From positions 93,352 to 157,351 of the forward strand of contig CAZCXU010000001.1 of the NCBI GenBank assembly GCA_964502885.1: a DNA stretch of 64,000 bases. Direction: 5' to 3'. This DNA comes from an uncultured Gammaproteobacteria bacterium (GTDB taxonomy: Bacteria > Patescibacteriota > Microgenomatia > CAZETR01 > Amesbacteraceae). The notes under the pieces were generated by a model. The model saw only the letters and a program-made list of their open reading frames with translations. It did no database searches and had not been told where the DNA came from. The position numbers were made by a program, and so were the translations under genes. This document shows positions 14,276 to 35,868 of the stretch, piece by piece. Each line of letters begins with the position of its first letter. Position 1 is the first letter of the stretch.

Positions 14276-14528
14276 CGACATGAACAATTTGTGGACAAAG
14301 TGTGTGCGGGCAGGGGATGGGAGGAAAAAACTTGTGAATAAACACAATAAGTTGTTCACACCTAGTGGATTTTTTTTAATTTATCCACAATAATGTGCAC
14401 AAGTTTACATAGTAGGTTTTACACAAGAAATTAACCCGAAAGTTGAGTGCGATAATGCAAAATAATCAACTTATCCACAATACCTACTACTGAGACGACT
14501 ATTTTAGATATAAAAATATCGATACCGA
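14276..14528. promoter_or_regulatory. Probable oriC (dnaA-dnaN intergenic) with DnaA boxes and AT-rich unwinding element
   Basis: Perfect TTATCCACA at 14381-14389 and 14471-14479. TGTGGACAA (one mismatch) at 14290-14298. A T-rich tract at 14368-14380. Confidence 0.6.
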
Positions 14529-17033: not shown

Positions 17034-17321
17034 TTAATGATGATTAATTTCTTCAAGTAATATGAGCGGAAGTTTGAGCAAATGATCCTTTTCTTCCTGA
17101 TAAGGGTCGGAGAAATGTTCATCTGTAGAGTGTGTTTCCACTTCGCGGCGAAGCTCTTCTGTGCTTTTGTGGAGGACCTGCCCAGCCCATTGCCAAAGCG
17201 GGTCAGCGTCTGTTTTGAACTGATCAAAATTATGACAGGAATTACAGATTTCAATTACGGCGTTTTCCAGACTGCTGACGACAGATGGATTTATGTAGTC
17301 AGGGTAGGCAAAAGTGTTCAT
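17034..17321 (-). CDS. Hypothetical small protein in the T4SS-like operon
   Basis: 95-aa ORF, acidic, translationally coupled to the VirB4 stop. Confidence 0.3.
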   Translation of the reverse strand: MNTFAYPDYINPSVVSSLENAVIEICNSCHNFDQFKTDADPLWQWAGQVLHKSTEELRREVETHSTDEHFSDPYQEEKDHLLKLPLILLEEINHH

Positions 17322-19183: not shown

Positions 19184-19832
19184 TTTTGACTGATGGAACG
19201 GGAACTTTTGGTAAGGTAACGTTTGTTCCCATTACATCCTGATTATAGGAATTAAAAAATAACTGTAATAGTTCATTTGAGGTTATTTGGCGCCCTTTAA
19301 GACCTATGCGAGCGAGAAGTCGCAACAAATGATCTCTTTTGGGAACAAGGTTTGTAATGGCCCGATCAACTATATAGTCTTTGGGGAGAGTGGTATTTGC
19401 TGACTTACCTCCCAGAACTTTCAGCGAAGAACCAACACCTAATTCAAGTGAACTAAATGGCAAAGATATGTAGAATTTTTTATCCAACACATTTCCCTGA
19501 CGAACGATGGCTTTGACGAAGTCGCGATATTTAGTAAGCTGTTCCTTGAGCTTTGATGTGGTGATTTGGGCAAGGTGAGTGTCCAGTTTTTCGATATAAC
19601 TGGAAATATCTTTTCGTTTGCTGATGAGAACGATTTGGATGGAAAAAGTGAGTGAGTTTAGAAGCTGTGCGTAGGCATAAATGGTGGCGTCCTGCTCTCT
19701 TTCTGAAAGAAGACCAAAGTTGACGGCGCTAATTTCCATGACCATACAGGCCGAGCCGTCTTTGAGAATGACGATGTCGTTTTGAATATCTTCAATGTCC
19801 AGATGATCTTGTGTGCGGGGGGGGATAGTCAT
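19161..19832 (-). CDS. VirB4 N-terminal (CagE/TrbE/VirB-like) domain encoded as a separate ORF
   Basis: ...DIVILKDGSACMVMEISAVNFGLLSEREQDATIYAYAQLLNSLTFSIQIVLISKRKDI resembles the N-terminal domain of VirB4 homologues. It overlaps the VirB4 start by 23 nt. An alternative upstream start lies at 19907. Confidence 0.4.
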   Translation of the reverse strand: MTIPPRTQDHLDIEDIQNDIVILKDGSACMVMEISAVNFGLLSEREQDATIYAYAQLLNSLTFSIQIVLISKRKDISSYIEKLDTHLAQITTSKLKEQLTKYRDFVKAIVRQGNVLDKKFYISLPFSSLELGVGSSLKVLGGKSANTTLPKDYIVDRAITNLVPKRDHLLRLLARIGLKGRQITSNELLQLFFNSYNQDVMGTNVTLPKVPVPSVKNEATKTP

Positions 19833-19839
19833 ACTTTTT

Positions 19840-20931
19840 TTAGGTTTTTCCGTGAATAATAACAGGGCTAATAATACTGCCTTTGGCTTGAATAGAAACC
19901 GGGTCAAAAGTTAAACCTTCCTTTTCGGCGATGACGTTGTAAGTTCCGGCTGGCAAGGGAATGGCAATTTGGAACTGACCGAGACGATTGGTTCTTAGGG
20001 CCCGTGCAGGAATACCTGTCTTGGTATCAATAATCTCTACAGTTGTTTGTGCTAACGGCTGGGAAGCTGCATCTACAACCATGCCGGTGAGAATATTCGG
20101 ACTGGCAGGATTGGGAAGCTGAGTGGTGACTGTAGCAGATGGGGCTGAAGGAATATTTACAGGTTTGGGAAGCGGGGGAGTGTTAGCAACAACAGCTGAA
20201 ACACCAGAGGAGGTGAGAATTGGTGAGGTAGGAGTGGTGGGTGTAGCTAAAACTGTTTGTGGTGACGCTTCGGCGTGGGGTGTGCCTGCCGATGAGAAAG
20301 AGGTTGAGATGGTTGGAGTTGAGGTGGAATTTTTAACTGGAGATGTAAAGACTGGTTGGGCGCGTGCAGGGGAAGTGGGGATAGGTGCAGAAGAAGGGGC
20401 AGATGTAGGGATAATGGGGGGAACAGTTGAATTAGGAGCGGGTGTGGGAACAATGGAGGAAATGGCTGAGTTAGGAGTAGTTGATGGAGGTAGAGTTTTT
20501 GCGGTGGACATCTGCGGTTCAATTTTTATGGCAGCAGGAATTGGTGCCGGAACGGTGGTGACTGGTTGAGGTGTAGGTGGCGACGGTGGAGCGGCTGTTG
20601 CAGTGGGTGTGATTGGTGGGGGTGGGGCAAGGCTCGCAACGATTTCGTCAGAGATCCAGACATACTCAGTGGGAGAATAGATGGCTTTAAAAAAAGCGAC
20701 GAGCCAAGTGGTAAAGGGTCGATTGTTGATAGGGATAAAGGCCATGAGTGCACCCGTGGTGATGGAAATAAAAACCAGCGGGTATTTGATTATGGGGATT
20801 AATTGGAGACGGAAAATGAGCACCCCCACAACAATGCCTCCTGCCAGCTGGAGAAATTGCTTGAGGGTCATATCGCCCACGAGACGGAACTCGTAGGAGG
20901 AAATATTTTGCGGGACAGGGTGGTTATCCAT
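19840..20931 (-). CDS. PrgI/TcpE-like (VirB3-analog) two-TM protein with Pro/Thr-rich linker and C-terminal carboxypeptidase-regulatory-like beta domain
   Basis: N-terminal SSYEFRLVGDMTLKQFLQLAGG followed by two TM helices. A long PT-rich low-complexity region. The C-terminus reads GMVVDAASQPLAQTTVEIID...YNVIAEKEGL. Confidence 0.4.
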   Translation of the reverse strand: MDNHPVPQNISSYEFRLVGDMTLKQFLQLAGGIVVGVLIFRLQLIPIIKYPLVFISITTGALMAFIPINNRPFTTWLVAFFKAIYSPTEYVWISDEIVASLAPPPPITPTATAAPPSPPTPQPVTTVPAPIPAAIKIEPQMSTAKTLPPSTTPNSAISSIVPTPAPNSTVPPIIPTSAPSSAPIPTSPARAQPVFTSPVKNSTSTPTISTSFSSAGTPHAEASPQTVLATPTTPTSPILTSSGVSAVVANTPPLPKPVNIPSAPSATVTTQLPNPASPNILTGMVVDAASQPLAQTTVEIIDTKTGIPARALRTNRLGQFQIAIPLPAGTYNVIAEKEGLTFDPVSIQAKGSIISPVIIHGKT

Positions 20932-21181: not shown

Positions 21182-23962
21182 ATGGACGATATGAGCAGCG
21201 AATCTAGACGGTCTGGTAGACTTGATTTTGACTCTGGCTTGGACGCTTCCCAAGTTAACAGAAGTGGGGATGTTGTAGGCCGAAATGTTCAAGAGTGGGG
21301 AGGGCGGGGGAGGCAGGTTGATGCGGAAGATGATAATTTAGAAATTTTCAAAAAAAAGTTGGAAGAAGCGGAGAACTTTTCTAGTATTCAGACTTATGTA
21401 GTGGGATATTTGGAGAGAGCTGAACAGAGAAACATCGTCGAGAGAAACGCAGCTTTGGAATTAATTCTGGAGAGGTCGAGATCATTTAAGGAGGTGGACT
21501 TAGGAATTCAAAGAGCTTTAAAAATCTCTCTAAAGGAGGAAAGGTTTGAAGAGTTGAAACAACTGAAAGACGAACAAGCAGCGTTGATGGTGGTGGCTGA
21601 TTCTTTAGATATGTTTGAAGGGGTAAGGCAGGTGGCTAGAGCAGGCCAGGGGGATTATTTACGAGGGAAGAGAGACGCGGATGAAATCTTTTCTGGAGCT
21701 GTGGGGCCTAATGTGTCAAATATAAGGGGTTCAGAGAAATTGCAAGGAATGGTGGACAGATACCAAGCCACAGCTGTAGGGGTGTGGGAATGGGCAAAAA
21801 GTGTGGCAAAGGGCGCGGATTATGAAGGTCGAACAAAAGAAGGTTTAGAGGCGTTGGGATGGGGAACTATCCCGTTTAGAGAAACATTGAACTTGGCAAG
21901 GGTTATAACGGAAGAAACTGTTTCTCCACCGGAAACTCCCCCCAGAGTTGGTCCATCTGGTGGTGACCCATCTCGAGGACCAGAAAGTGAGATTTTTGCT
22001 GAAAGGGCAAGGAGAGCAGAAGAGTTGTTGATAGCAACGGGATTAAGTAACAATGGTTTGCCAACATCAATTGCTGAGTTGGATGCTATTGAACAAGGGG
22101 CTCCATACATCGAAAAAACAGGCAGACCTTTGTATGGTGGAATTTTGCACAACCTGCTTAATAAATACATGACAGTTTCGGTGACTGAGGGAGAGAAAAG
22201 ATTGGGGTTGGCTAGTAAGGTGGAGGCTAATTTTACTTCTGATGAGTTGCTACTAATTAACGACAGAGATGTGAGGTTTTGGGTTCAAGTGTTTGCCTTT
22301 GGGTTTGGGTTGGGGTCTCGAACGAAAATTAATTCACATTTAAATGAGAATCAGGGTGGTTTTGTGAAGAATGCTTCAGGAGAAGCTCCCATGCAGGGGA
22401 GAAGTGTGGGTGAAATGTTAAATGCAATTGCAGGTAGGGATGTTGAGAATGATGAAAGAATGTGGGGAGAATATCGTATGGAGGCGGGGCGACGGGTGGC
22501 TCCCTCTAAGGATAATACATGGAATAAAGCTTTTGGAAATGTGCAGTATGGTGAATGGGAGGTTTTGCAGGTGGCGATGATGAGAGCAATAGTGTTGCGA
22601 GGGAATCCAGAGATTTCTTCGGATGAACTCGACACAATAATTCGTACTAATAAAAATTTACGTATGGGTTTAGCTGGGGCGAGGATGTATGCAATGGCGA
22701 CACATATGGGAGATCAGTTTGCAGTCGAATCTAAACACTTTTTAGCAACGGCGGCATATTTTGAGTTCCATTTTCAAGCAGCAGCCGTGGATAGATTGGC
22801 AAAATTATCATTACCACACAGGTTTAGGAGTTATATGAATTTAAACTCAGACTTATTTAAGGACTCGCAGGGAAACTGGAGTGATGAAACACTTATGCAT
22901 CGCAGATTATTTGCCCCTGATGTAATGCGATCAGTTATATGTTCTCCTGCTGTGTTTTCGCGAGGAGTACAAGGACCTAATCCGGAAGAATCAAGATATG
23001 AACCACAGGAGACAATCTTAGACTTGGCCATAAGGGGCATAGAAGTTCGACAAGATGCGTTGCAAACAGGGGTAACTCCTACCCGTATTTATAGTTTTGG
23101 AGTAAATGCGGCCGAAAAAATATTTAATTTGGCTTTTGGGGGTGGGACTCCCCCCGAAGGGCCGGATGTAAAGTTTGACAGAGATAAGGGATGGGCGTGG
23201 AATATGGGGCAGGAAATTCTGGCTACAGCGCGGGATTTGGGTTGGATTATGGAATATGAAAATACCATTAAACAAGAAGGGGTGAGTATGACTCCAGCTG
23301 AAGCGTCTCGACGAAGAAGAGCGATAGAACATAATATTCAGAGGTTGGGTATCACTAGGTTTATGGCTGGGTTGGGAATGAGAATAGAAAGAGGCGAAGT
23401 GCACAATTTAACCGATTTGGCGGCTTGGGCGGTGGGGATGGTGCTTGATAGAAGCGCCAAGTTTGTACATCAGATGAATTTGCCGGACGGAAGTGTCAAG
23501 CAGTTGGAGTTTCGCTGGGTATCCAAGGAGGACTCAGAATGGGTTGTAGAACATGGGTTGAATAAAAGAGATGAGAAGTGGGTGGATACGAGAAGCCCTT
23601 GGTCTTATGTTTATGAGTTAGTAACCAGGAGAGCACCTAATCGTAGAGGTGAGTGGGAAACTAAGCAGGGTGGAGAAGATGATTTATTGATTCAGGTATT
23701 GGTAGATAAGGCAGGAGGGGATGCTTCGGAAGCGGCTATGCACAGAAGAGACCAACTGAATCATCGGGTTAGAAAGTGGCGTTGGGGAGTAGGTGACTAC
23801 TTCTTGGGGTGTGGAGGGACTGCTACTAAAGAGGATGTGAGGCTTCGGGAGAGCTTTGAAGAAAAAATTGCGGGTGGTAGGGATATGCCCAAAATAGACA
23901 GGTTAACTCCATATCAAAAGGTGTACAACACATTGGACTTTTCTGATTACGGTAAAAGCTAA
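21182..23962 (+). CDS. Large soluble orphan protein (926 aa) adjacent to the T4SS-like genes
   Basis: Long ORF with no TM helix and no Walker motifs, Gly/Arg/Trp-rich. No family I recognise. Confidence 0.5.
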   Translation: MDDMSSESRRSGRLDFDSGLDASQVNRSGDVVGRNVQEWGGRGRQVDAEDDNLEIFKKKLEEAENFSSIQTYVVGYLERAEQRNIVERNAALELILERSRSFKEVDLGIQRALKISLKEERFEELKQLKDEQAALMVVADSLDMFEGVRQVARAGQGDYLRGKRDADEIFSGAVGPNVSNIRGSEKLQGMVDRYQATAVGVWEWAKSVAKGADYEGRTKEGLEALGWGTIPFRETLNLARVITEETVSPPETPPRVGPSGGDPSRGPESEIFAERARRAEELLIATGLSNNGLPTSIAELDAIEQGAPYIEKTGRPLYGGILHNLLNKYMTVSVTEGEKRLGLASKVEANFTSDELLLINDRDVRFWVQVFAFGFGLGSRTKINSHLNENQGGFVKNASGEAPMQGRSVGEMLNAIAGRDVENDERMWGEYRMEAGRRVAPSKDNTWNKAFGNVQYGEWEVLQVAMMRAIVLRGNPEISSDELDTIIRTNKNLRMGLAGARMYAMATHMGDQFAVESKHFLATAAYFEFHFQAAAVDRLAKLSLPHRFRSYMNLNSDLFKDSQGNWSDETLMHRRLFAPDVMRSVICSPAVFSRGVQGPNPEESRYEPQETILDLAIRGIEVRQDALQTGVTPTRIYSFGVNAAEKIFNLAFGGGTPPEGPDVKFDRDKGWAWNMGQEILATARDLGWIMEYENTIKQEGVSMTPAEASRRRRAIEHNIQRLGITRFMAGLGMRIERGEVHNLTDLAAWAVGMVLDRSAKFVHQMNLPDGSVKQLEFRWVSKEDSEWVVEHGLNKRDEKWVDTRSPWSYVYELVTRRAPNRRGEWETKQGGEDDLLIQVLVDKAGGDASEAAMHRRDQLNHRVRKWRWGVGDYFLGCGGTATKEDVRLRESFEEKIAGGRDMPKIDRLTPYQKVYNTLDFSDYGKS

Positions 23963-24020: not shown

Positions 24021-25751
24021 TTAGGATGTACCACCTGCGGGAGGGACAGGTCTTCGAATGTTGGCTTCTTTGGCTTTGGAGACTTGCTGACCAGCCGAAG
24101 TCAATTGTCCCATGGTGTCTTTGGCCATCTTTTCAACAAAGTCAGAAGGATCTACAGACTTACAGAACATGTTCTTAACCATGGTTGCTATGTTGGGGGC
24201 GAATGACATGGCCCCTACGAAAACTGCATATTGGACGAAAATATTACTGGGCATGTCAAATAAGGGAAAGTTGGCTTGGTTGTTAAAAAAGAAGCCTATG
24301 TCTCCGGCGAATCCTGGGACGGGAGTGCGAGTGTCAAACCCTGCATTAATTAGAATTGCTAAGAGAGCATATGTCACAAAAATTGAGGCATTGCCGATGA
24401 GACAAAGAAGCCATTTTTTAAATCCACCAAAATCAGATTTCTTCGATGGGATAATATCGAAAATAATTATTAGCGGGCCGGCGACAACCAGAAGATTAAA
24501 AGTAATAAAGGCGACCACAAATTGACCAATAATTCTGGCCCAGACGTAAATTGACCAAAGGAAGAAACCAAGAATGAAACCAGCTATGAGAACAACCACT
24601 CCTCCAGAAGCAAGATTAAGCAGTGCAGCTAGAACTATAGTGAGAATTATCAGTACTATGGAAACAACTATCCAAAAGGCAAGGAAATGCCAGACAAAAT
24701 CAAAACCGCCTCCAGCTAAGGTGGACATAGCAAGCGGCAAGTCAGTTATAATTGTCATGCCGATAGCTGTTTGGGCAAAATAAAGCATGCCAATAATTGC
24801 GGAAATGGCTAAGTACATCAGGTCAATTACGAAGCCGGCAATGGCGTATGAAAAGAGAACCAACACAATAGATATGGCAATGCGGGGAATAACCATTTGA
24901 ATTGTTACCGAGACTTGCGGAGATATTTTTGAACGGAACATAACCATAAAACCAGCAATGATGATAATCAGGGTGGTAATTAATAGTGCGATGTTTCGAG
25001 TGGCGATCCAAAATGCTCGGGTAGGAGAGTCTGTCGTTCCGGTACCACCCAAGCCAAGTCTTTCGTAACCACTTCCTTGCGCAAACGTGTCCGAGACAAT
25101 GTTGAGTTTTGAAGCAAGTTGTTTAGTTTCAGACCAGGCTGAGGGGAGGGTGTCAATTTGTGATGAGATATAGTAGGTAAGCTTGAGTACTCCAATATAA
25201 CTTTGACCTATGAATCCATATTTATTAACAAATGCCAGATCAGAAGAAGAAAAATTTTGAGTGACGAGCATGCTGCGGGCAAGATCTATCGCTGTGAGTA
25301 AATCAGTGATGTTTTGCAAAAGGGCTGCTGGATCAGGAGAAGATATAACTGAGGGAAATAACATCGAAGAGAGAGAGTTGAGGATCCAGTTTACTTGAGC
25401 GTAGGTGTAGCGCTCACCAAAAATTTCGTCGGGATTTGTATTGTCGAAAACTTTTTGCTGGAACTCCTGAATTGAAGGATTGTACCAAGGGTGTGGTGTT
25501 ACTTCGGCGAAGAACAAACGGGAGATTTCGTAGATGAGATAGGAGCAACGTGCTGCATCACCGAAAGGGTTGGGGGAAATGGCTTGACAGGCAGCATCTG
25601 CCTGAGCGCACAGCGGCTCGGCGGGATCACAGGTCGGTTGGGCAAGAACCGGTGATGGTGTGATAAATACTGTTAACCCTATGAATAGAAACGAAAGGGT
25701 AAAAAGGTATTTTTTAATCAGCATTGAAAGATGTTTTGTCATGGAAGACAT
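24021..25751 (-). CDS. Polytopic membrane protein with signal peptide and Cys-containing periplasmic N-domain; VirB6/TrbL-like candidate
   Basis: Signal peptide, then a roughly 230-aa extracytoplasmic domain, then about 8 TM helices with large loops, consistent with VirB6-like topology. Confidence 0.35.
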   Translation of the reverse strand: MSSMTKHLSMLIKKYLFTLSFLFIGLTVFITPSPVLAQPTCDPAEPLCAQADAACQAISPNPFGDAARCSYLIYEISRLFFAEVTPHPWYNPSIQEFQQKVFDNTNPDEIFGERYTYAQVNWILNSLSSMLFPSVISSPDPAALLQNITDLLTAIDLARSMLVTQNFSSSDLAFVNKYGFIGQSYIGVLKLTYYISSQIDTLPSAWSETKQLASKLNIVSDTFAQGSGYERLGLGGTGTTDSPTRAFWIATRNIALLITTLIIIIAGFMVMFRSKISPQVSVTIQMVIPRIAISIVLVLFSYAIAGFVIDLMYLAISAIIGMLYFAQTAIGMTIITDLPLAMSTLAGGGFDFVWHFLAFWIVVSIVLIILTIVLAALLNLASGGVVVLIAGFILGFFLWSIYVWARIIGQFVVAFITFNLLVVAGPLIIIFDIIPSKKSDFGGFKKWLLCLIGNASIFVTYALLAILINAGFDTRTPVPGFAGDIGFFFNNQANFPLFDMPSNIFVQYAVFVGAMSFAPNIATMVKNMFCKSVDPSDFVEKMAKDTMGQLTSAGQQVSKAKEANIRRPVPPAGGTS

Positions 25752-25797: not shown

Positions 25798-28700
25798 TTA
25801 GGGAAAGGGAAACGGGCAGCTGGGAGCAATCCATTCCCATTTGCCTTGAAGGCCAGGATTTGCGGCGGTACCGTCTCCCAACGCATATAGATCGGATTCG
25901 GCGGTGGGAATGCAGGAGTCACCCACCAGGTATATGGCAGAGAATACCCGTACTCCTCCGTAAGTATTTATTTCAGATGCGCAACGGGATCTGATGGCAT
26001 TTACGGTAAGGAGGTGACCGGTGATTTGCTGATCGAAGTTGTTTGGTGTGTTGTATTGACCGACGTGAACGCCAAAATCTTCTACTGGAGTGTTGGCTTC
26101 GTAATTGCTGGCGTCCGATTCGTTTAACCAAATCAATAGTGAAAGTCCAGGATTTACGCCGGCGGCGTCTGCGCGTGTGACGACGTCGTTGTAGCAAAGT
26201 TCTGCGAAAGTGCCATCCGGAAAATTGGTCCAGCGCCTGGCGATGTCTATGTAGTTAGTGCGATCTACACAGGGTGTGTTGGTTTCGGGAAGATTGGTGT
26301 TGCAGTTTATGCCGCCCGGTGAGTCTATAGGGCTGACTGATCCTACAAAGCCTTTTGGTCGGAGGGCGCGTTGGAGATTGAGGTTTTCACGGGTGGGGAC
26401 ACCAAGAATGTGATCGGCAAGGCTGCCGACCTTGGGAAAATAAAAAGCTCCCCCAGAAGTGCGCAAACCTCCTCCGATACCACCAGAGGCTACATTACGT
26501 CCTGCCGTGACACGGGGATTGATCAAATTTTGCACCTGGCCGTTGTAGGCTGCACTAGTTCCTGCCGGTATGGATACGTCTCTGTTGTTGGTGATGTCGT
26601 AATCGGTTTGTGTGATCTGCCAAATGCAGGAGTAGCCCTGGGATGCCATTGCCTGACAGGCTGTTTCGGTTAATTGGTTAGAACAAATTCCAAGATCTCG
26701 GGGTGAGGTGGTGGTGCAAGCTTCATATGTGCCAGTCAGGGGGAGTTTGGGCATCCAGCGACGAAGGACTGAGTTTGGGCCTGCCACAAGGATGTCATAG
26801 AGCTTTTCGATGTATGGTGTTTTTACAAAAGGATTAACCCGTGCAGCTGATCTCAGGTTGCGGGTTGGCCAGACAGGGCAGTGAGGAGGACGAGGGGCCA
26901 GTGCGGGAGCGGCACGAACAACACGCCACTCACAGTATGGTGACATTCCGGCGGCAGTACACCCAGTTTGGTCCAGGGCCGAACAAACAGAAGCATAACT
27001 ATCGTATCCAGATCTGCTGCGGCAGGCATATTCATCAGTGGGGGCACAACATATTTCGCCAGCATTACCACAATCCAGATCAATTATTTCCCGATTTTCG
27101 CCACATCCGTTTGGACCGGGCGCGCGGCAGTCGTATGTGGAGCTGGCATGGTAGCACTCGCTAATCCAAGGACAGCGTTGTCCGATTTGAATCGTGCAGC
27201 ATTCGCCCCCAGGAAGCTGGTCATTGCATTCATCTCCCTCCAGGGAACAGGGTCTATTGATGCAGTTGCCGGCACCGGCGGGACACGGGTTTGCGTCACA
27301 GCCAATTACGAGTCGGGGTGTGTAGCGGAAGAGCTGACGATATGTAAGATTTCCGTTTAGGACGTTTCCCAGCAGGCGATCTCCGGATGAAGTACGAGTT
27401 TCGGCTTCGTCGCAAGTAAAGTCTGATGGAACATATAACGCAGCGGGCGCAGGTCCGTCAATAATTTCCGTGTTGCGAATGACAGTTCCGCCACCAGAGC
27501 AGCCCCTGAGAATGGAGCCTGCAAAATATCTTTGGCAGAGAACAACTGTTTCGTCGGAGTGTCCTTCGGATGCTCCAAAACCCTGATGGCGGGCAACTCT
27601 TTGGGAAAACATATTGCTATTTTCAGAACTGAACAAGGGAGCGTGTGTGGCGGCAGGGGGTGTTGGCGTTGGAGTAGGTGTGGCCAGAACAACAGTTTGA
27701 CTTGAATAACTGGATCCGGCGAGACGAATACGAATGCTGCCGGGGAGACCGCGACTGACAAACCACTGGCTACTTCCGCCGTAGCGATAATATGAATGAG
27801 GCCATGTAGGTATGATGCCTTCGTAATAGCGTTGCACACTGACACTGGGGTCAACATAGTTACTGAGTGGACCGTAGTCTTGGTTTGTTGTCGGATCAAA
27901 AACATGGAATTGGTTCCAAAGCGCTTCACCCATACCTGGCAAACCGTAATAAACATCTATCAGGTTGTAAGCTGGCAAGTAAAAAGCCCGGAGATAGTCT
28001 GCCGGATTTGTTGATAAAACAGGAGTGGGGATTGGGGGCGGGGGGGGAGGGGCGGTGGGAGGAACAATTACCGGATATGGCTGATGCAAAGCTTGGACGA
28101 GACTTGATAAAGGAACAGCTGATTTCATGTGCGGGAAATAAAGCCGTGAATCAAAGCGGCCTGAAATAAGGGTGGGAAAACTGAGGCCAATAGTGAGAAT
28201 TCGGCCATCGATGTCTACGGGTTGAGCTTCCGGAATAACACTTGCTGTAAACTCACTCACAGTGTCCTCAAGAGTTGAGTAATTGATGTATTTATGTGTC
28301 CAGGTTTCGGTATCGAAATTGCTGGCCACCCAACTAAGGCGGCGACGCAGGGTGCTGCTGACGCAGGGTTCTGCGAGGTCGAGACGTAAAGCTGCAGTGA
28401 TGTTTCCGATGCGACTCAGCAGGTTTCTGCCTAGGGAAAAAAGCATGTTTACATCATCAAGGTTGTTGGCTATCACAGTAAAACCGTAATTTAAAAGTAC
28501 ATTTCTAATTCCGATTGGGTTGAATTGATCGCCCGGAAGTAAGGCAATGTTGACAAGTGCGCCACCAAAATCCTGCATATTATTCATGCCAACTCGACGG
28601 ATGATATCGATCATTCTGACAACATCAAGGAAACTGCCAAATGAGTTTGTAAATATTGCTTCCAGAGCGTCTAAAACATAATCAAAGTCGATGTTCCGCT

Positions 28701-29460
28701 GACAGGAAACCAGATAGTTGTGGTACTGTGACCCTACGTTGTTGCTGGCAACGGTTTCCTTTATGTCATCACGGAAGTCTTTTGGATATAATTTGTTTAT
28801 TGGCCCTGAATAAGAGGTGATGCGTTTAGTGTCGGCCGGATCGAAACCGTTTAAGGGAAGTTTTTCTGACTGGAATACCGTACCATTCAGATACCAATTA
28901 AGATATTGGTTAACTTTGTAATCGTCGGGAATTGCAACTTCGGTCTGGCCGAAAATGGGGAGTTGGGAGTTGGTCGCATTGATAGCGACTGTCCAGCGAA
29001 CTCGTTTGACGTAGCAAATGTCTGTGGATCCTGACTCACAGAGATAGTCGTCAGAACGATCGCCGCCCTCCTGGGTTAGGGGGACACTGATGGGGTTGGC
29101 CGGGAGGACTGAAAGACCACACATGTCAATAACGTCTGAGACCTCATCGTAACCTGAGACATTTAGGGATTTGGCACAATGAAATGAGAGATAGACTTTA
29201 TTGGGATCGTCCGGGGCTTCGGGGACTTTTGCGGGAATGAGGACATCGCAAGGGTTTCCAGGATAGGGTCTTAGCGGATGAAATTCCGGATCGTTTCCGG
29301 TATTTGTGTGGCAAGGATAATTAAATGGAGCCGGCCAGGGGTTACGGGTAAAAAATCCGAGAGTGGGGGTCTGGGCGTGAATAAGATTTAGCCATGGAGT
29401 GATGGCAGAAAAGACTGCTACAACAGAGCTTACTACTAACAACTTAACGGTCGGTTTCAT
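25798..29460 (-). CDS. Giant secreted Cys-rich modular protein (1220 aa), putative surface adhesin or tip protein
   Basis: Signal peptide MKPTVKLLVVSSVVAVFSAITPWLNLIHA. Poly-Pro linkers (PPTAPPPPPPIPTPV, TPTPTPTPP). Dense Cys modules (CDANPCPAGAGNCINRPCSLEGDECND...CCAPTDEYAC). It sits directly upstream of the pilin array. Confidence 0.55.
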   Translation of the reverse strand: MKPTVKLLVVSSVVAVFSAITPWLNLIHAQTPTLGFFTRNPWPAPFNYPCHTNTGNDPEFHPLRPYPGNPCDVLIPAKVPEAPDDPNKVYLSFHCAKSLNVSGYDEVSDVIDMCGLSVLPANPISVPLTQEGGDRSDDYLCESGSTDICYVKRVRWTVAINATNSQLPIFGQTEVAIPDDYKVNQYLNWYLNGTVFQSEKLPLNGFDPADTKRITSYSGPINKLYPKDFRDDIKETVASNNVGSQYHNYLVSCQRNIDFDYVLDALEAIFTNSFGSFLDVVRMIDIIRRVGMNNMQDFGGALVNIALLPGDQFNPIGIRNVLLNYGFTVIANNLDDVNMLFSLGRNLLSRIGNITAALRLDLAEPCVSSTLRRRLSWVASNFDTETWTHKYINYSTLEDTVSEFTASVIPEAQPVDIDGRILTIGLSFPTLISGRFDSRLYFPHMKSAVPLSSLVQALHQPYPVIVPPTAPPPPPPIPTPVLSTNPADYLRAFYLPAYNLIDVYYGLPGMGEALWNQFHVFDPTTNQDYGPLSNYVDPSVSVQRYYEGIIPTWPHSYYRYGGSSQWFVSRGLPGSIRIRLAGSSYSSQTVVLATPTPTPTPPAATHAPLFSSENSNMFSQRVARHQGFGASEGHSDETVVLCQRYFAGSILRGCSGGGTVIRNTEIIDGPAPAALYVPSDFTCDEAETRTSSGDRLLGNVLNGNLTYRQLFRYTPRLVIGCDANPCPAGAGNCINRPCSLEGDECNDQLPGGECCTIQIGQRCPWISECYHASSTYDCRAPGPNGCGENREIIDLDCGNAGEICCAPTDEYACRSRSGYDSYASVCSALDQTGCTAAGMSPYCEWRVVRAAPALAPRPPHCPVWPTRNLRSAARVNPFVKTPYIEKLYDILVAGPNSVLRRWMPKLPLTGTYEACTTTSPRDLGICSNQLTETACQAMASQGYSCIWQITQTDYDITNNRDVSIPAGTSAAYNGQVQNLINPRVTAGRNVASGGIGGGLRTSGGAFYFPKVGSLADHILGVPTRENLNLQRALRPKGFVGSVSPIDSPGGINCNTNLPETNTPCVDRTNYIDIARRWTNFPDGTFAELCYNDVVTRADAAGVNPGLSLLIWLNESDASNYEANTPVEDFGVHVGQYNTPNNFDQQITGHLLTVNAIRSRCASEINTYGGVRVFSAIYLVGDSCIPTAESDLYALGDGTAANPGLQGKWEWIAPSCPFPFP

Positions 29461-29484: not shown

Positions 29485-29880
29485 TTAGGAGCAGCCGATG
29501 CCTCTGGCTATACAGATATCAAATATTCCCAAATTGATACCGAGGAAAGTGCCAATAAGGTTGACTATTACGAATGCTGACAAGGTGATTATTAATCCTG
29601 CAAGAGAAAAGATAATTGTATTTCTTGCTTGTTCGGTTTGGGCTTTGTCTGCTCCTGCAGCTAGATACTTGTATCCACCAATAACCAGAAATCCTAAAGA
29701 AATGAAAACAAAAAGGCTGATGATTGCGGTAATCGCAGCGGCTATTACTCTATTTAGGTTCTGGAGCATTGCGGGCGGAGTAGGGTTTGCAATTGTTGTT
29801 TGAGCTTGAGCGACAGTAGGCCATGCTAATACGAATACAGATGCGGCCAACGTGATCAGTGAGCGAATTGTTGTGTACAT
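29485..29880 (-). CDS. T4SS pilin-like protein (VirB2/TrbC-like two-helix), paralog 1
   Basis: Signal peptide, then TM1-GADKAQTEQARNTI-TM2. It ends in a CxxxxxC tail. Confidence 0.55.
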   Translation of the reverse strand: MYTTIRSLITLAASVFVLAWPTVAQAQTTIANPTPPAMLQNLNRVIAAAITAIISLFVFISLGFLVIGGYKYLAAGADKAQTEQARNTIIFSLAGLIITLSAFVIVNLIGTFLGINLGIFDICIARGIGCS

Positions 29881-29960
29881 CTGTTTTTAATATAGGGCAA
29901 AAAAACAACCCCGGCAAGGGCCCGGGGTTGTTTTGGCCATTTCTGGCCGGTTCCAAAAAC

Positions 29961-30326
29961 TTATGAACCAATCGTTGCGAGATTGAATTCGATAAGGTTG
30001 ACGTTGAAGAGAACACGCAGAATGTACAGTAAGGCGTAAGCAGAGAAGACGATTGCCAAACCGATTAAGGCGGCAGTGATCTTCTTGCGAGCTTTTTCGG
30101 TACCTTCTTTGTCTCCACCAGCGAGAATCCATTGTAAACCACCCCAAAGTAGGATGATAAAGGAAGCTACGCCAGCGATACCCAACATAAGATTCAAGAT
30201 GGTTCTCAAGAAATCTGATGGGGTATAGTTCTTCAAAGTGTCGAAACGTGTATCGACGTTAGCCACGCTACCGACATCCGAGTCTGGAATAGGAAGAGCA
30301 AGTTGTGCAAGTAGTCTCATCATCAA
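29961..30326 (-). CDS. T4SS pilin-like protein, paralog 2
   Basis: LGIAGVASFIILLWGGLQWILAGGDKEGTEKARKKITAALIGLAIVFSAYALLYILRVLFNVNLIEF. Confidence 0.6.
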   Translation of the reverse strand: MMMRLLAQLALPIPDSDVGSVANVDTRFDTLKNYTPSDFLRTILNLMLGIAGVASFIILLWGGLQWILAGGDKEGTEKARKKITAALIGLAIVFSAYALLYILRVLFNVNLIEFNLATIGS

Positions 30327-30379
30327 ATCTCACCGCCTTTCAGTGGAAAGTATAACATAAAATCAGTGCCGGAGGCTAA

Positions 30380-30754
30380 TTAGAGGGGTGTGATAGTGTA
30401 CTCAATGAGATTGACGTTGAAGAGGGTACGGATGATATACAGAATCGCATAGGATGAAAATACGATAGCCAATCCTATGAGAGCATAGCTGATTTTGCGG
30501 CGAGCTTTCTCGACTGCGTCTTTGTCGGATCCAGCGGTAATCCATTGAAACCCACCTATTAGGAGGAATAAGAATGCGGCAACACCTGACAGGCCCAGGA
30601 GGGCAAGAATCGACGTGCGGATATAGCTGGCGGGCTGAATATTGTAGGTGTTAGCAAAAGGAGAGTTGGGGTCGCGTAGATCTATTAATTGCTGGGCATC
30701 AATAGAAGGAGGAAAGAGAAGCAAGCTTGCCAGGAGAGCGAGAATCAGTTTCAT
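30380..30754 (-). CDS. T4SS pilin-like protein, paralog 3
   Basis: Signal peptide plus ...WITAGSDKDAVEKARRKISYALIGLAIVFSSYAILYIIRTLFNVNLIEY. Confidence 0.6.
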   Translation of the reverse strand: MKLILALLASLLLFPPSIDAQQLIDLRDPNSPFANTYNIQPASYIRTSILALLGLSGVAAFLFLLIGGFQWITAGSDKDAVEKARRKISYALIGLAIVFSSYAILYIIRTLFNVNLIEYTITPL

Positions 30755-30782
30755 GTGAGTTCGAGTTTATAAGAAAGGGTTG

Positions 30783-31454
30783 TCAGTTACAAGGGATGCA
30801 GGTAATCAGGCCACATCCAGTCGTGCCGAGCGGAGTCCAAGAGCCGTTTGATTCGCATCGGAAACATGGACCATTTATGACAGATGTTGATCCTAACGTG
30901 CCTGCCGGAATGCATCTTCCAGTTGCAGATCCGCCACAGGCACACATGCCGGATGGTGGGGTGATGTCGCAGCCGGGATCTGTGGGGTTAGTACAAGGAA
31001 TCCCTGAATCCCAGGGATCACTACCAGGAGCAGGTGGGTTGGGGTCGTTGATCTGAGAGGAAATTTCCCCGATATGTCCGAGGTTGAATTGAATTAAATT
31101 GATGTTAAAGAGGGTGCGGAGAGCAAAAAGGAAACTGTAGGCTGAAAAAACAATTACCAGTCCAATTAAAGCCTGAACAACCTTTCTGCGGGCTTTTTCA
31201 ATTGCGTCTTTATCACCACCAGCCAGTATCCACTGAATACCGCCGATAAGCAGGAATATAAAAGAAAAAACTCCTGCCAGTTGGAGGAGAAGGTTTAGAA
31301 GTGTGGTCAATATCATTGATGGGGTGAGGCTGCGAATTGTCGTAAAATCCGGATCGACGTTTTGTTCTATGCCAATGTAGTCTTGTGCTTTTGCGGTTGC
31401 AGGCATTAAGAACATAGAAATAACTGTGGAGATGTGAACCAGGTGGTTTCGCAT
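30783..31454 (-). CDS. T4SS pilin-like protein, paralog 4, with C-terminal Cys-rich extension
   Basis: Pilin core (...WILAGGDKDAIEKARRKVVQALIGLVIVFSAYSFLFALRTLFNINLIQF) followed by a 90-aa tail carrying about 11 Cys. Confidence 0.6.
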   Translation of the reverse strand: MRNHLVHISTVISMFLMPATAKAQDYIGIEQNVDPDFTTIRSLTPSMILTTLLNLLLQLAGVFSFIFLLIGGIQWILAGGDKDAIEKARRKVVQALIGLVIVFSAYSFLFALRTLFNINLIQFNLGHIGEISSQINDPNPPAPGSDPWDSGIPCTNPTDPGCDITPPSGMCACGGSATGRCIPAGTLGSTSVINGPCFRCESNGSWTPLGTTGCGLITCIPCN

Positions 31455-31460
31455 GGGTAA

Positions 31461-31802
31461 TTAGAGGTTTCTTAAGGTGAATCCAATCGGATTTACATTA
31501 AATAGGACACGCAATATATAAAGAATGGCGTAGGAAGAAAAGACGATAACTAAACCTATCAGCGCGTTGATGATTTTACGGCGGGCTTTGTCGATACCAT
31601 CTTTGTCGCCACCGGCAGTAATCCACTGAACTCCACCCCAGAGCAGATAAATAAAGAAGCCAACACCAGCAAGACCCAAGAGAAGACTGATGGCTGTAGC
31701 GACATAAGCGGAGGGTTTGAGGTTTGTAATGTAGTCGTAGTTGCTGTCACCAGAATTGACAGTGATGGGAACAAATTGAGCCAATAGGTGTTGGTTGATC
31801 AT
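31461..31802 (-). CDS. T4SS pilin-like protein, paralog 5
   Basis: ...WITAGGDKDGIDKARRKIINALIGLVIVFSSYAILYILRVLFNVNPIGF. Confidence 0.6.
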   Translation of the reverse strand: MINQHLLAQFVPITVNSGDSNYDYITNLKPSAYVATAISLLLGLAGVGFFIYLLWGGVQWITAGGDKDGIDKARRKIINALIGLVIVFSSYAILYILRVLFNVNPIGFTLRNL

Positions 31803-32131
31803 AGTTCAGGAACGTTGAGGGAGAGAATCGAGACGCCAAATAACACTTCGATTATCCAAATGATTACGAATGAAGAAAGAAGTATGGCAATTCCAATAAG
31901 GGCATTACGAATACGGTGTGTGGCTTTCTGGACGCCTTCCTTATCTCCGCCGGCGGTGATATAGGCAAAACCACCCATTAACAAGTTGACGAAAAAATAA
32001 ATTCCACTTAATCCCATGACGGCATTTAAGACGTTTCTTAGTAGCAACTGGACCATGCTGTCAGCCTCGTTGACGTTGATATTTCCGATTTGACTGTTGA
32101 CCGCAGGGTTGACGATGGTAAACAGATACAT
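31799..32131 (-). CDS. T4SS pilin-like protein, paralog 6
   Basis: ...YITAGGDKEGVQKATHRIRNALIGIAILLSSFVIIWIIEVLFGV. Confidence 0.55.
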   Translation of the reverse strand: MYLFTIVNPAVNSQIGNINVNEADSMVQLLLRNVLNAVMGLSGIYFFVNLLMGGFAYITAGGDKEGVQKATHRIRNALIGIAILLSSFVIIWIIEVLFGVSILSLNVPEL

Positions 32132-32134
32132 ATT

Positions 32135-32554
32135 TTAAGGTGAAGCAACAATTAACTGCAATCCGAGACGAAAGATGTCCAATCCCAGGAATCGGCCAAT
32201 GATTCCAATTAGTCCGTATGATCCAACAACTATGAACATACCCAATATGGAAGTGGAAAGACGTTTTTTGCTTACCTCCACGGTATTTTTATCGCCACCG
32301 GCACCAATCCACTGCATTCCGGAAAGGACTATTTGATAGATGAACCAAAGTGACGCGACTATAGTGAGTAAACCGAGGATAGAAGAAACAAATTTTTCCA
32401 ACATATCTCCGGGCCCTCCACCTGTGCCAGTCATAAAAAGTCCTGAATGTCCAAATGTACCCAGAGGTCCGACACCGTCAATGTTTCCCAAGTTGACTTG
32501 AGCTAAAAGGTTTCTCATGGGGTGAATATCCGTGGTGAAATAAGCGTGTTCCAT
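32135..32554 (-). CDS. T4SS pilin-like protein, paralog 7
   Basis: ...WIGAGGDKNTVEVSKKRLSTSILGMFIVVGSYGLIGIIGRFLGL. The real start may be an internal Met. Confidence 0.5.
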   Translation of the reverse strand: MEHAYFTTDIHPMRNLLAQVNLGNIDGVGPLGTFGHSGLFMTGTGGGPGDMLEKFVSSILGLLTIVASLWFIYQIVLSGMQWIGAGGDKNTVEVSKKRLSTSILGMFIVVGSYGLIGIIGRFLGLDIFRLGLQLIVASP

Positions 32555-32874
32555 CCATTAATACCATACAGGAAGAGGCCGATGACGCTGGCGATGACTA
32601 ATGATCCGGTGACTATGGCTAGTCCCAGAAAGGATTGCCAAATGCGCTCGTGGGCTTTTTGGACCATTTTGGGGTCGCCATTTGCGCTTAAGTATCCATA
32701 CCCTGCCAAAATTAGATTGATCAATGTGTATATACCAGCCAGGATTATGGAGAGTCGGATGAGGCTGCTAAGAATTAAGATAAGACCTTCGCCCTGAGTG
32801 CCAGCTGCGAGTCTGGGATTGTTGTATCCGGATGTCCCAAATGGATTGTCGATAGTGCCGAATGCTCCTAACAT
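32515..32874 (-). CDS. T4SS pilin-like protein, paralog 8
   Basis: ...YLSANGDPKMVQKAHERIWQSFLGLAIVTGSLVIASVIGLFL. Confidence 0.5.
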   Translation of the reverse strand: MLGAFGTIDNPFGTSGYNNPRLAAGTQGEGLILILSSLIRLSIILAGIYTLINLILAGYGYLSANGDPKMVQKAHERIWQSFLGLAIVTGSLVIASVIGLFLYGINGWNTLISPRIFTP

Positions 32875-32880
32875 AGTTTT

Positions 32881-33231
32881 TTAGACGAATGGCGGGTCAA
32901 TTAAGTTTACACCTGTAATGGTAGATATAATCTGAAGTATAAAATAAGCACTAATGACTAGCAATAAGCCCAGAACTCCATAAGTGACGGAATTTTTTCC
33001 TTGCTGAACACGTTGTGGAGGGTTGATTTGTCCGCCAAAGATAATTAGTAAGTAACCTCCGTGGATGATGAGATAAATGAAATAAAGACTGGCGATTGCC
33101 ATGGCATTGAGGAGTAAGAGAGAGACAATATCGCCCAATTGACCACGGAAAGGGGAGGTGGCCCCAACGTTGGGATGGTTGACGAAAAACTTGTCTTGCA
33201 AGTTTACTGGCGGGTTAAGAAGCTGAAACAT
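32881..33231 (-). CDS. T4SS pilin-like protein, paralog 9 (divergent)
   Basis: Two hydrophobic helices flanking a ...GGQINPPQRVQQGKNSVTYGVLGLL motif. Confidence 0.45.
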   Translation of the reverse strand: MFQLLNPPVNLQDKFFVNHPNVGATSPFRGQLGDIVSLLLLNAMAIASLYFIYLIIHGGYLLIIFGGQINPPQRVQQGKNSVTYGVLGLLLVISAYFILQIISTITGVNLIDPPFV

Positions 33232-33234
33232 TTT

Positions 33235-33540
33235 TTAGATTAAGTTGGTGCGGGTAATAGTTTGAATTATTTGCAAAATAAAGAAGGCACTAACTACAGT
33301 AAGGAGGCCAAGAAGCGCGTTGGTGATCTGTCTTTTTATCTGCATGAGTTTGGCTTCGTCGCCCAGGCTTCCCATATATGCGAATCCCGCTGTAATCAGA
33401 TGGTAAAGAAAATAGAGTCCGGCTCCGGCCATGGCAAAGAGAATAGTGCGAGAGGCGATTGTTGAGGGTAGTGTGGCACTGGTCGAGAATCGGCCGGAGG
33501 TGTGGATGAAATCGGGAATCTGAGCTAAATGTGAGTTCAT
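33235..33540 (-). CDS. T4SS pilin-like protein, paralog 10
   Basis: ...YMGSLGDEAKLMQIKRQITNALLGLLTVVSAFFILQIIQTIT. Confidence 0.5.
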   Translation of the reverse strand: MNSHLAQIPDFIHTSGRFSTSATLPSTIASRTILFAMAGAGLYFLYHLITAGFAYMGSLGDEAKLMQIKRQITNALLGLLTVVSAFFILQIIQTITRTNLI

Positions 33541-34055
33541 TAGAGTCGGAAACCAAATAAGGAGAGACCTAAGACGTTAAATCCTAAGAAGTTGAGAACG
33601 ACGATGGCGGAAGTGATAAGAATTAAACCTAGTACTGCCGAGGTGAGTGTGTCTTTGGCGGAATTAATTTTTTTAGGGTCGCCTTCAGCGGTGGCAATAG
33701 TGAAACCCGCATATACGATCAGAAGAAGAGTAGCCAGGCCGGCCAAACCAACTGCCCAAGTAGCAATAATCCAGACTGTATTTTGAGTATCGGAGGTGGG
33801 TATACAACCTAAGGCTGTCCTAATAGCACCAGTGCCTGCACAAAAAGGATTTTGAGCATTACATTCTGCTACAGTGTCGCAACAAAGATGTTCCATAGGG
33901 TTTGCACATTGAGGGCGGGCGACACAGGGACTGTAAGTACCCCATATTGTTCGAGAACGGATTTCACACCAGCTGTAAGTTGGATCTGGGAGGGATAATA
34001 CTGACGTGACAAATAAAAGTGTTGTGATAAGTATTCTAAGTGGTGCAGATTTCAC
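33540..34055 (-). CDS. T4SS pilin-like protein, paralog 11, with N-terminal Cys-rich secreted module
   Basis: Signal peptide, then a roughly 70-aa module with 10 Cys, then the pilin core (...FTIATAEGDPKKINSAKDTLTSAVLGLILITSAIVVLNFLGF). Confidence 0.5.
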   Translation of the reverse strand: MKSAPLRILITTLLFVTSVLSLPDPTYSWCEIRSRTIWGTYSPCVARPQCANPMEHLCCDTVAECNAQNPFCAGTGAIRTALGCIPTSDTQNTVWIIATWAVGLAGLATLLLIVYAGFTIATAEGDPKKINSAKDTLTSAVLGLILITSAIVVLNFLGFNVLGLSLFGFRL

Positions 34056-34080: not shown

Positions 34081-35868
34081 ATGATAATTGGTATGACGAA
34101 AGTGAGACTTACAATAATATGTTTAATAACGTTTTTATGGATAACCATGACATCTTCGGTGCGGGCAGAGGAGTGTGATAATCCAGGAAGTTTGTCTGAT
34201 CCAGTAACAATAACCAGATGCATAGGCAAATTTAATGGAATATTGGAAGCGATTTCGAAAGCAAATTCTAACAACAAGCAGCAGCTGCAGGGGATGCAGC
34301 AACAGATTGCCAAACTACAAGCGCAAATAAAAGCTTTGGAGATGCAAATCGGGGTGCTACAAAAAGGAATATTTGAAAGAGAAGTACGGGTGGGGGTGAA
34401 ACAGGAACTGTTGTCTGCGAAAGTGAGACGTGACTATGTAGTGAAACGAGATCAGCCAATATTGCAGGTGTTGTTTGCTGCTGATGGGGCAGCGGATTTT
34501 TTTCAAGATATGTTTTTGCGGGAGAAGTTGGCGCGGCTGGACCATGCATTGATTGTGTCTGTGGGGGGGGAGATTAAAAATTTGAATGATCAGGCGCAAA
34601 CTTTATCGTCCCAAAAACAAAAACTGGCGAGTCTTCAGGCGCAAGTAGATAAGCAGGCGGATTTTCTACAGGCGGAAGTCGAAAAAGCCAGTAAATATGA
34701 GTCTGATTTGGGAGGGAAGATCTCAGCATTGACCGCTAGGCAACAGGAATTGCTGGCGGAAAAGACTGGGACTATCGCCACTTCGGTCGGAGATGTACCA
34801 CTAGCTGACGATCCGGCCGCGAGACCGGATTACAATCCAGGTTTTTCACCGGCGTTTGCCATGTTTTCGTTCGGGGCGCCACACTTTAAAGGGATGAGCC
34901 AATATGGGGCTTTGGGTAGGGCCAAGGCAGGCCAGAGTTATGAGACCATTCTTAAGGCTTACTATGGTGATGTGAGGATTGTGGATGTGGGAACGGGTTT
35001 TTCGATAAGGACAAGTGCAGGAACAATGCCAATGGAGGATAGATATATGAAGGGGATAGCGGAGATGCCGACGTCGTGGGCAAATGACGGGGGAATGGAG
35101 GCGTTGAAGGCGCAAGCGATAGCGGCCAGAAGCTATGCGTTGAGTTATGTGGGGTGGCGAATGGGTAAACAATCAGCCGGAGGTTCGATTTGTGTGACGG
35201 AAGCGTGTCAGGTATGGAGATCGTCGAAAGCAAACAGTCCCGGAGCGTGGGGAAGTGCTGTTGATCAGACTAAGGGAAAGATTTTGGTGAGTAACAAAAC
35301 GGGAGAAATTATTAGCGCCTGGTATGCGAGTACGTCGGGAGGTTATCAGGAAAGTTATACCACCTTGGGCCATACTACTCCTGGATTTTGGGACACGACA
35401 TCAAATTGGACGAGGTGGGCAGATGGAGCGTATGAGGTAAAAGCAGGAAGTCCGTGGTTTTATAAAGGCTGGTACAAGACCAGGACAGGAAAAACCTGTG
35501 GCAGGGCACATCCGTGGCTTAACCAGGAGGAGTTCTCAGATATGGTGAATGCTGCCATTGTGGTGGAAAGAGGTGGAGATGTGTCGGGAATTTTTCCTGA
35601 AGATGTGAGGAGTTGTTGGGGTGGAAGTGACAATCCATGGTCAAAAGACCGGTTGGCACAGGAAGCGGACAAGCATGGTGGCCGGGTGACGAGTGTCGGT
35701 AGTGTGAGAGTGGAGCATGGAAACAATGGTATTACAAACAAGGTAATACTTTCGACAAATAGAGGAGAAGTTACGATTACCGGAAGTAATTTCAAACGAG
35801 CATTTAATTTGCGCGCCCCAGGAGCTCTAGCTTTGAAGAGTGGACTTTTTAATATCGAAAAGAAGTGA
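34081..35868 (+). CDS. SpoIID/LytB-domain peptidoglycan hydrolase with N-terminal signal/TM and coiled-coil region
   Basis: Coiled-coil Q-rich N-terminus. SpoIID/LytB motifs ...MEALKAQAIAARSYALSY...AWYASTSGGYQESY.... Confidence 0.55.
   Translation: MIIGMTKVRLTIICLITFLWITMTSSVRAEECDNPGSLSDPVTITRCIGKFNGILEAISKANSNNKQQLQGMQQQIAKLQAQIKALEMQIGVLQKGIFEREVRVGVKQELLSAKVRRDYVVKRDQPILQVLFAADGAADFFQDMFLREKLARLDHALIVSVGGEIKNLNDQAQTLSSQKQKLASLQAQVDKQADFLQAEVEKASKYESDLGGKISALTARQQELLAEKTGTIATSVGDVPLADDPAARPDYNPGFSPAFAMFSFGAPHFKGMSQYGALGRAKAGQSYETILKAYYGDVRIVDVGTGFSIRTSAGTMPMEDRYMKGIAEMPTSWANDGGMEALKAQAIAARSYALSYVGWRMGKQSAGGSICVTEACQVWRSSKANSPGAWGSAVDQTKGKILVSNKTGEIISAWYASTSGGYQESYTTLGHTTPGFWDTTSNWTRWADGAYEVKAGSPWFYKGWYKTRTGKTCGRAHPWLNQEEFSDMVNAAIVVERGGDVSGIFPEDVRSCWGGSDNPWSKDRLAQEADKHGGRVTSVGSVRVEHGNNGITNKVILSTNRGEVTITGSNFKRAFNLRAPGALALKSGLFNIEKK

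Follow-up and report, generated by a model that had tools for sequence, protein, structure and literature searches.

On the contig CAZCXU010000001.1 (assembly GCA_964502885.1) we analysed a stretch of 64,000 nucleotides, here called the window, from whose first letter all positions are counted. Between an array of pilin genes and a VirB6-like gene it contains a gene for a protein of 1220 amino acids, which an earlier note, made from the sequence alone, had taken for a pilus-associated adhesin. We now propose, with a probability of roughly 0.7, that the protein is a Sec-exported modular cell-wall glycosidase and a fixed part of the T4SS (type IV secretion system)/pilus locus of Patescibacteria of the Microgenomatia type. 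The only function assignable to the protein, by way of a structure model, would be an enzymatic one. The features on which the proposal turns are:

25798..29460, minus strand: the whole gene, 1220 codons plus stop (open reading frame list, homologues, profile search and conserved synteny).
25801..26340, minus strand: tail type A, the lysozyme-like (GH23/goose-lysozyme-like) domain formed by residues 1041-1220 (structure model).
26119..26121, minus strand: codon for the putative catalytic acid Glu1114, within the motif GVNPGLSLLIWLNES (invariance, helix end and alignments; codon confirmed by translation).

The gene consists of one open reading frame that fills 25798..29460; its earlier description was correct except for the strand, which is minus, and for the cysteine density discussed below. 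Residues 1041-1220, modelled from a 60-sequence alignment, are all-helical (predicted local distance difference test, pLDDT, 92.6; predicted template modelling score 0.90) and in the model take up a helical fold of the lysozyme type that includes a substrate groove. Compared with the structures of known lysozyme-type proteins, the tail model scored 8.9 with a GH73 endolysin, 8.8 with MltF, 8.6 with LytB, 8.2 with goose-type lysozyme, 7.8 with a GH23 chitinase, 7.7 with MltE, 7.5 with Slt, MltC and phiKZ gp144, 7.2 with FlgJ, 7.1 with the Tn916-like conjugative hydrolase CTn1-Orf17, 6.6 with Tse3 of a type VI secretion system and 6.1 with EtgA of a type III secretion system. Foldseek put g-type lysozymes first in the PDB and LT_GEWL phage proteins first in BFVD, with matches that are not significant (E at least 0.25 in the PDB and at least 0.019 in BFVD; template modelling scores 0.43-0.50). 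At the level of the model we regard the lysozyme-like fold of these 180 residues as established. An enzymatic domain at about residues 1000-1220, for which the earlier note had advised to look, is thereby predicted: a lysozyme-like peptidoglycan glycosidase domain.

The same note had recognised no known domain, which holds for the sequence (Pfam, NCBIfam, PHROGs and PDB) but not for the fold. Scans of the whole protein against Pfam (E<=1), NCBIfam and PHROGs gave no match; its tail did not match SLT (PF01464), SLT_2, SLT_3 or Glucosaminidase, nor did the 13 closest homologues match any of these four families at Pfam E<=1. The remote homology search that had been recommended was likewise negative for profiles and positive for structure: the profiles of tail type A (A2), of tail type B (A3) and of the whole family (A7, A8 and A9) found only chance or non-significant matches among PDB sequences, whereas the predicted structure is lysozyme-like. 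Sequence identity of the tail to the GH23 proteins goose-type lysozyme, MltE, MltC, MltF and Slt70 is 10-17%; unlike these, type A has no recognisable GLMQ and AYNxG motifs and contains six cysteines in the query.

In 60 tail sequences W1111, E1114, S1118, D1128, G1130 and Q1145 are invariant. Glu1114 lies in the model at the C-terminal end of the helix formed by residues 1104-1115. In a weak hhalign alignment its motif pairs with the motif (Y)VP..L..I...EGG of the alternative tails B and D, and an alternative-tail profile run against the PDB matched MltC and MltE alone, at the catalytic glutamate (E64 in MltE), with E values of 0.13-2.6. A local, non-significant alignment also pairs E1114 with E73 of what we take to be the goose lysozyme sequence. 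The tail is the best-conserved part of the protein among close relatives, reaching 78% identity to the homologue P0002. We infer, with good support, that Glu1114 is catalytic; the tail most likely cleaves the glycan strands of peptidoglycan in a bacterial cell wall. Close homologues of type A all end in C-x-FPFP (residues 1217-1220 of the query, 25801-25812, minus strand), which may serve in docking or processing.

The second part of the evidence comes from the homologues. A word-index search yielded 14 homologous proteins. With an exhaustive profile search at E<=1e-3 the number of cluster representatives (50% identity) rose to 808, and 441 of these pass E<=1e-30, so that the family is large and has simply gone without annotation. 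Its members are built from a signal peptide, an optional head, an N domain, a mid domain, a variable cysteine region, a post domain and a C-terminal tail. Among genomes that carry a relative, those of Candidatus Amesbacteria (Microgenomatia) stand closest. Tails and domains were counted in the 156 best family members. Tail type A, that of the query, is present in 94 of them, type B in 20, type C in 12, type D in 10 and type E in three, besides singletons; both A and B are found within Amesbacteria. Type C tails, which occupy the same position as the tail of the query, score high enough in P0094, P0110 and P0095 for the gathering threshold of Pfam family PF18896 (SLT_3, 'Lysozyme like domain'), and the type D tail is borderline for PF01464 (SLT; 20.3 bits at a cutoff of 21.3). 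Tails B and D are related to each other (hhalign probability 87%). The type A tail of the query, by contrast to type C, does not match PF18896, and the hhalign comparisons of type A with types B to E, including C, were not significant and gave only a short match at the glutamate motif. A motif of the form '...P..L..I...E(S/G)' is present in the consensus sequences of all five tail types (5/5).

Some members carry further modules: esterases of the GDSL/SGNH or SASA type, either before the tail or N-terminal, cellulase-like GH5 domains located in the head or inside the N domain, Glyco_hydro_cc domains and NAGPA phosphodiester glycosidases. Since lysozyme-like tails are swapped and carbohydrate-active modules are added, the family is thus a conserved scaffold with interchangeable glycan-cleaving enzymes.

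The third part is the position of the gene. The window contains the following neighbours:

17318-19183, minus strand: VirB4-like ATPase (Pfam, NCBIfam).
19161-19907, minus strand: TrsD-like protein (Pfam, NCBIfam).
19840-20931, minus strand: PrgI/VirB3-like protein (Pfam, NCBIfam).
24021..25751, minus strand: polytopic membrane protein of 576 amino acids, VirB6-like by topology and position only.
29485..34055, minus strand: ten tandem VirB2-like T4SS_pilin genes (PF18895; Pfam).
34081..35868, plus strand: SpoIID-domain protein (PF08486), oriented divergently to the pilin array, with synteny kept in related loci.

The gene thus stands within a T4SS cluster, 24 nucleotides downstream of the pilin array and 46 nucleotides upstream of the VirB6-like gene, whose product has five or six hydrophobic stretches and no Pfam match. 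Its place between these two neighbours had been described correctly, and the check for co-occurrence with the pilin array in related genomes gave a clear answer: in 14 of 14 independent loci, read as far as each contig extends, the order is SpoIID (on the opposite strand), 5-13 pilin genes, the family gene, the VirB6-like gene and, further on, PrgI, TrsD and VirB4. The order is identical in relatives of 27-35% identity and in those with other tails, which bears out very strongly the genetic link to the pilin array and the VirB6-like gene. Each locus has one family gene; neither the window nor any of 15 loci yielded a paralogue of the N, the mid or the post domain.

The locus agrees with published descriptions, in which T4SS of Patescibacteria are akin to the systems of monoderms (mating pair formation class MPF-FATA), have arrays of VirB2-like pilin genes and are in some cases located near dnaA (PMC12102498). 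A recognisable VirB1 near virB4 is usually missing from them, and most pilin-bearing Patescibacteria genomes are without a VirB1 homologue (PMC12102498). The arrays described comprise 2-11 pilin genes (PMC12102498); the ten of the window, which are divergent, form one of the longer arrays. The window is chromosomal, with dnaA, dnaN, several tRNA genes and a transfer-messenger RNA (tmRNA) gene; dnaN/dnaA (12917-15647, plus strand) end about 1.5 kb from the T4SS-like genes starting at 17318, which places the locus beside the presumed origin of replication.

The part of the protein that precedes the tail is divided as follows:

29374..29460, minus strand: predicted signal peptide, residues 1-29 (MKPTVKLLVVSSVVAVFSAITPWLNLIHA, followed by QTP; sole hydrophobic segment and conserved site).
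28066..29373, minus strand: N-terminal family-specific domain, residues 30-465 (alignment A1, jackhmmer).
28351-28698, minus strand: helix-prone insert within the N domain, residues 255-370 (absent from some homologues).
28018..28065, minus strand: Pro-rich linker 1, residues 466-481 (read from the sequence).
27685..28017, minus strand: Tyr/Gly/Ser-rich lineage-specific insert, residues 482-592, between both proline linkers.
27652..27684, minus strand: Pro/Thr linker 2, residues 593-603, ATPTPTPTPPA (read from the sequence).
27301..27648, minus strand: conserved mid domain, residues 605-720 (alignment A1).
26881..27300, minus strand: variable Cys-rich region, residues 721-860 (cysteine statistics).
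26341..26880, minus strand: conserved post domain, residues 861-1040 (alignment A1).
26596-26727, minus strand: second four-cysteine module inside the post domain, residues 912-955, common only to the query and P0006.

The signal peptide claimed by the earlier note agrees with the single hydrophobic segment of the protein (residues 2-27), after which the sequence runs through IHA into QTP, and with the AHAQTP-type cleavage site kept in close homologues. All 40 cysteines are in the mature part. The two Pro-rich spacers are indeed present, at residues 469-481 (TAPPPPPPIPTPV) and 593-603. The dense cysteine centre is real, at a density below the one in five that had been given: 18 cysteines in residues 721-843 amount to one per 6.8 residues, compared with 2.0% cysteine in the remainder (binomial P 6e-11). 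Four more cysteines, those of the second module, fall within residues 915-945.

The N domain, found in 154 of the 156 members by jackhmmer, has no Pfam or PDB relative and is characterized by the motifs PEFHPLRPYPGNPCD, YLNWYLNGT, SGPxNKL, YSTLEDT and DSRLYFPH (alignment A1). Motifs of the mid domain (148/156 members) are QRVxxHQG, IRNTE, PAPxxLY, CD..TR..GD.LLG and LTYxQLFRYTP. The post domain (144/156) contains LRSAARxNPFxKTPxIEKLYDxLV..SxLRRWxPKLP ... YFPxxGS..D.ILG.P..ENLNLQR.LRPKGF, with L891, S897, R901, P904, Q1030, R1034 and P1035 invariant in alignment A1. The 111-residue insert 482-592 has no relative among the 156 members and is unique to the query; where it stands, P0005 and P0009 have two or three copies of a repeat of about 50 residues with six cysteines. 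Across homologues the cysteine region varies from 30 to 199 residues in length and from 2 to 23 in cysteine count, and together with the linkers it is the least conserved, most indel-rich part among close relatives. In the query it contains C-x-C-x-C-x-W mini-modules at 745-765 and 826-845. An AlphaFold2 model of residues 605-1220, made with a 14-sequence alignment, reached a pLDDT of 50, with low confidence in the mid domain, and is usable for the C-terminal domain and two cysteine mini-modules alone (residues 815-844 have a pLDDT of about 82-87). The stalk-plus-knot reading of the middle of the protein is plausible because the linkers and the cysteine modules are its most indel-prone parts.

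A module of the form C-x(2-9)-C-x(3-10)-C-x-W is found at varied insertion points (N domain, linker, cysteine region or post domain) in 24 of the 156 members. The query has it at 745-765, 826-845 and 926-947, and it is also present in P0008, P0011, P0005, P0006 and P0009. Two copies were modelled with a pLDDT of about 80; judged from its distribution in the sequences, the module appears to behave like a mobile disulfide mini-domain. Two readings of motifs in this part were rejected: a hevein/CBM18 or knottin fold for the CCWGxCP region (no match to Chitin_bind_1; one match to Toxin_29 with E 0.076, in one homologue), and a Vav DH domain at the motif YFPxLGS..LQxxLRPKG, for which a weak match recurs with E about 0.1 that we judged to be due to chance. 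The bin 26001-28000, in which linkers, unique insert and Cys-rich part are encoded, has a GC content of 0.519; most other 2-kb bins of the window have about 0.43-0.47 and the highest elsewhere 0.488. Either composition (codons for Pro, Gly, Ala and Cys) or recent acquisition may be the reason.

How the protein would work can be sketched from this layout. After removal of the signal peptide there would remain about 1000 residues of N, mid and post domains with linkers and cysteine inserts that are presumably disulfide bonded. This scaffold would dock the enzyme on the pilus/T4SS apparatus, the variable cysteine modules and linkers would project it away from the cell or target it, and the lysozyme-fold tail with Glu1114 and Asp1128 would cut the MurNAc-GlcNAc backbone, either as a muramidase or as a lytic transglycosylase. 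The wall to be cut may be that of the producer, opened for the pilus and the channel, which is the job of VirB1, PrgK and TraG, or it may be that of the host bacterium, together with its surface glycans, at the site of contact. We slightly favour the host, since self-assembly alone hardly accounts for so diverse a set of tails or for the added GH5, NAGPA and esterase modules. This diversity resembles, by analogy, that of phage tail lysins and depolymerases, which match diverse target envelopes. An interaction with the host is a reasonable reading in which we go beyond what was observed.

Wall hydrolases of the VirB1 type and of monoderm T4SS are VirB1 of A. tumefaciens, PrgK of pCF10, TraG of pIP501 and the Tn916-like Orf14/CTn1-Orf17 (PDB 4hpe). 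The query has no detectable homology to the VirB1, TrsG, CD419, SLT, CHAP or NlpC families. It differs from VirB1, PrgK and TraG by about 1000 extra residues of family-specific domains, from PrgK and TraG by a predicted cleaved signal peptide in place of an N-terminal transmembrane anchor, and from the VirB1-type hydrolases by having no second (peptidase) catalytic domain. Its gene follows a pilin array, whereas monoderm conjugative T4SS are without one. Phage tail lysins and depolymerases (phiKZ gp144, PRD1 P7, a Staphylococcus phage tail tip lysin and the LT_GEWL domains of tape-measure proteins), which are among the structural matches of the tail and breach the target envelope locally, resemble the query in that a large structural scaffold bears an exchangeable lysozyme-like domain, alone or beside further modules that degrade glycans. 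Unlike them, the query has T4SS genes as neighbours and no PHROG match, and the window is not phage because it is chromosomal.

A protein of similar layout comes from a cultivated Patescibacterium, Southlakia epibionticum, in which SEML1_0006 and SEML1_0007 are essential proteins of the T4SS cluster (PMC10633639). SEML1_0006 has lysozyme-like/CHAP domains, and SEML1_0007 consists of 1113 amino acids with a long unannotated N-terminal part and a C-terminal cell-wall peptidase at residues 951-1105 (PMC10633639, Table S2). We liken SEML1_0007 to the query by layout, a long scaffold followed by a C-terminal wall hydrolase, not by sequence. Its catalytic type is that of a DD-peptidase, unlike the glycosidase-like tail of the query, and the genes of both Southlakia proteins are downstream of virB4 whereas the query gene stands between the pilin genes and the VirB6-like gene.

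In place of an enzyme the protein could be an adhesin at or near the pilus tip, a functional analogue of VirB5, with cysteine-knot modules that bind the host and a tail that is mainly glycan binding or auxiliary. Like VirB5, which carries a Sec signal but lacks a membrane anchor, the query is predicted to be Sec-exported and soluble. In all loci its gene directly follows the pilin array and precedes the VirB6-like gene. Its cysteine modules and linkers are hypervariable and indel-rich, and neither VirB5 nor a PrgB-type adhesin has been found in T4SS loci of Patescibacteria (PMC12102498, PMC12857230). No adhesin or VirB5 domain was detected, however: at the sequence level Pfam gave no match to the VirB5/TraC signature PF07996, and neither adhesin domains of Pfam nor an LPXTG sorting signal of the PrgB type were found in the query. 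(The sole LPxTG string, LPLTG at residues 906-910, was rejected as a sortase signal, being internal, not followed by a hydrophobic tail and not conserved.) That Glu1114 and Asp1128 are invariant and the tail is highly conserved speaks for catalysis over mere binding, and homologues have additional hydrolase and esterase domains, not lectins. We therefore consider adhesion as the main role doubtful; it is compatible with the glycosidase that we propose. About as tentatively we consider a view that joins the two, in which this family would be the distal component that is missing from the T4SS pilus of Patescibacteria, a VirB5-like tip turned into a phage-tail-like device for puncturing cells. 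Hypervariable disulfide knots would recognise the host, the swappable lysozyme-like head would locally digest its wall and surface glycans, and esterase, GH5 or phosphodiester glycosidase modules would assist in some lineages. Such a device would open the route of the epibiont's essential T4SS to the host cell.

The lysozyme-like tail would also suit a free, diffusible antibacterial muramidase unrelated to the assembly of the machine, comparable to the T6SS effectors Tse3/Tge or to the X-Tfe effectors of the Xanthomonas T4SS. We regard such a toxin as improbable because the protein has a Sec signal peptide rather than a signal for the T4SS coupling protein, because no conserved immunity gene is adjacent, the neighbours being always pilin genes and the VirB6-like gene, and because a conserved scaffold of about 1000 residues in strict single-copy operon synteny fits a structural or accessory part better than cargo. 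A generic surface or S-layer-type structural protein, found at the T4SS locus by accident and equipped with a degenerate lysozyme-like tail, would agree with a large, secreted, Pro/Thr-linked and Cys-rich protein without Pfam domains, but hardly with a synteny kept down to relatives of 27% identity, with invariant acidic residues in the tail and with homologous tails that reach Pfam SLT_3; we give this explanation very little credence.

Wall hydrolases associated with T4SS are well known, as are lysozyme-like domains, and PF18896 already covers one of the tail types. What appears to be new is a scaffold family that is very large and unannotated and has its fixed place between pilin array and VirB6-like gene in Microgenomatia-type Patescibacteria, further its cryptic type A lysozyme-like tail, and the modular exchange of glycan-active domains within it. 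In the one species of Patescibacteria examined, epibiotic growth requires the T4SS, and according to surveys wall hydrolases of the VirB1 type, tip proteins of the VirB5 type and adhesins are mostly missing. The family, with a core for which there is no Pfam model, is a concrete candidate for opening a cell wall, the own or that of the host, at the pilus/T4SS of these ultrasmall bacteria. It would fill the VirB1 role reported missing (PMC12102498) or breach the wall of the host, and surveys by sequence profiles under-count wall hydrolases in T4SS loci of Patescibacteria.

Several other genes of these loci deserve mention. Inside the locus of the window, on the plus strand (21182-23962), is a gene for 926 amino acids whose product has no hydrophobic segment and no Pfam or NCBIfam match. 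Homologues are in the same place in the related loci L001 and L004, other loci carry large genes there, and the gene may code for another uncharacterised T4SS component. In the related locus L003 (18399-21899) the VirB4 ATPase of 1166 amino acids contains an intein that includes a homing endonuclease of the LAGLIDADG type (Intein_splicing, LAGLIDADG_3). The tmRNA gene of the window (40241-40639) is about 6 kb from the SpoIID/pilin end, and in two relatives smpB is a few genes from that end (L002, 1054-1473; L015, 1-97); the neighbourhood is loosely conserved. The public MAG records of L004, L008, L012 and L013 are titled 'uncultured Gammaproteobacteria bacterium' yet carry a locus of the Patescibacteria type, and they are apparently mislabelled.

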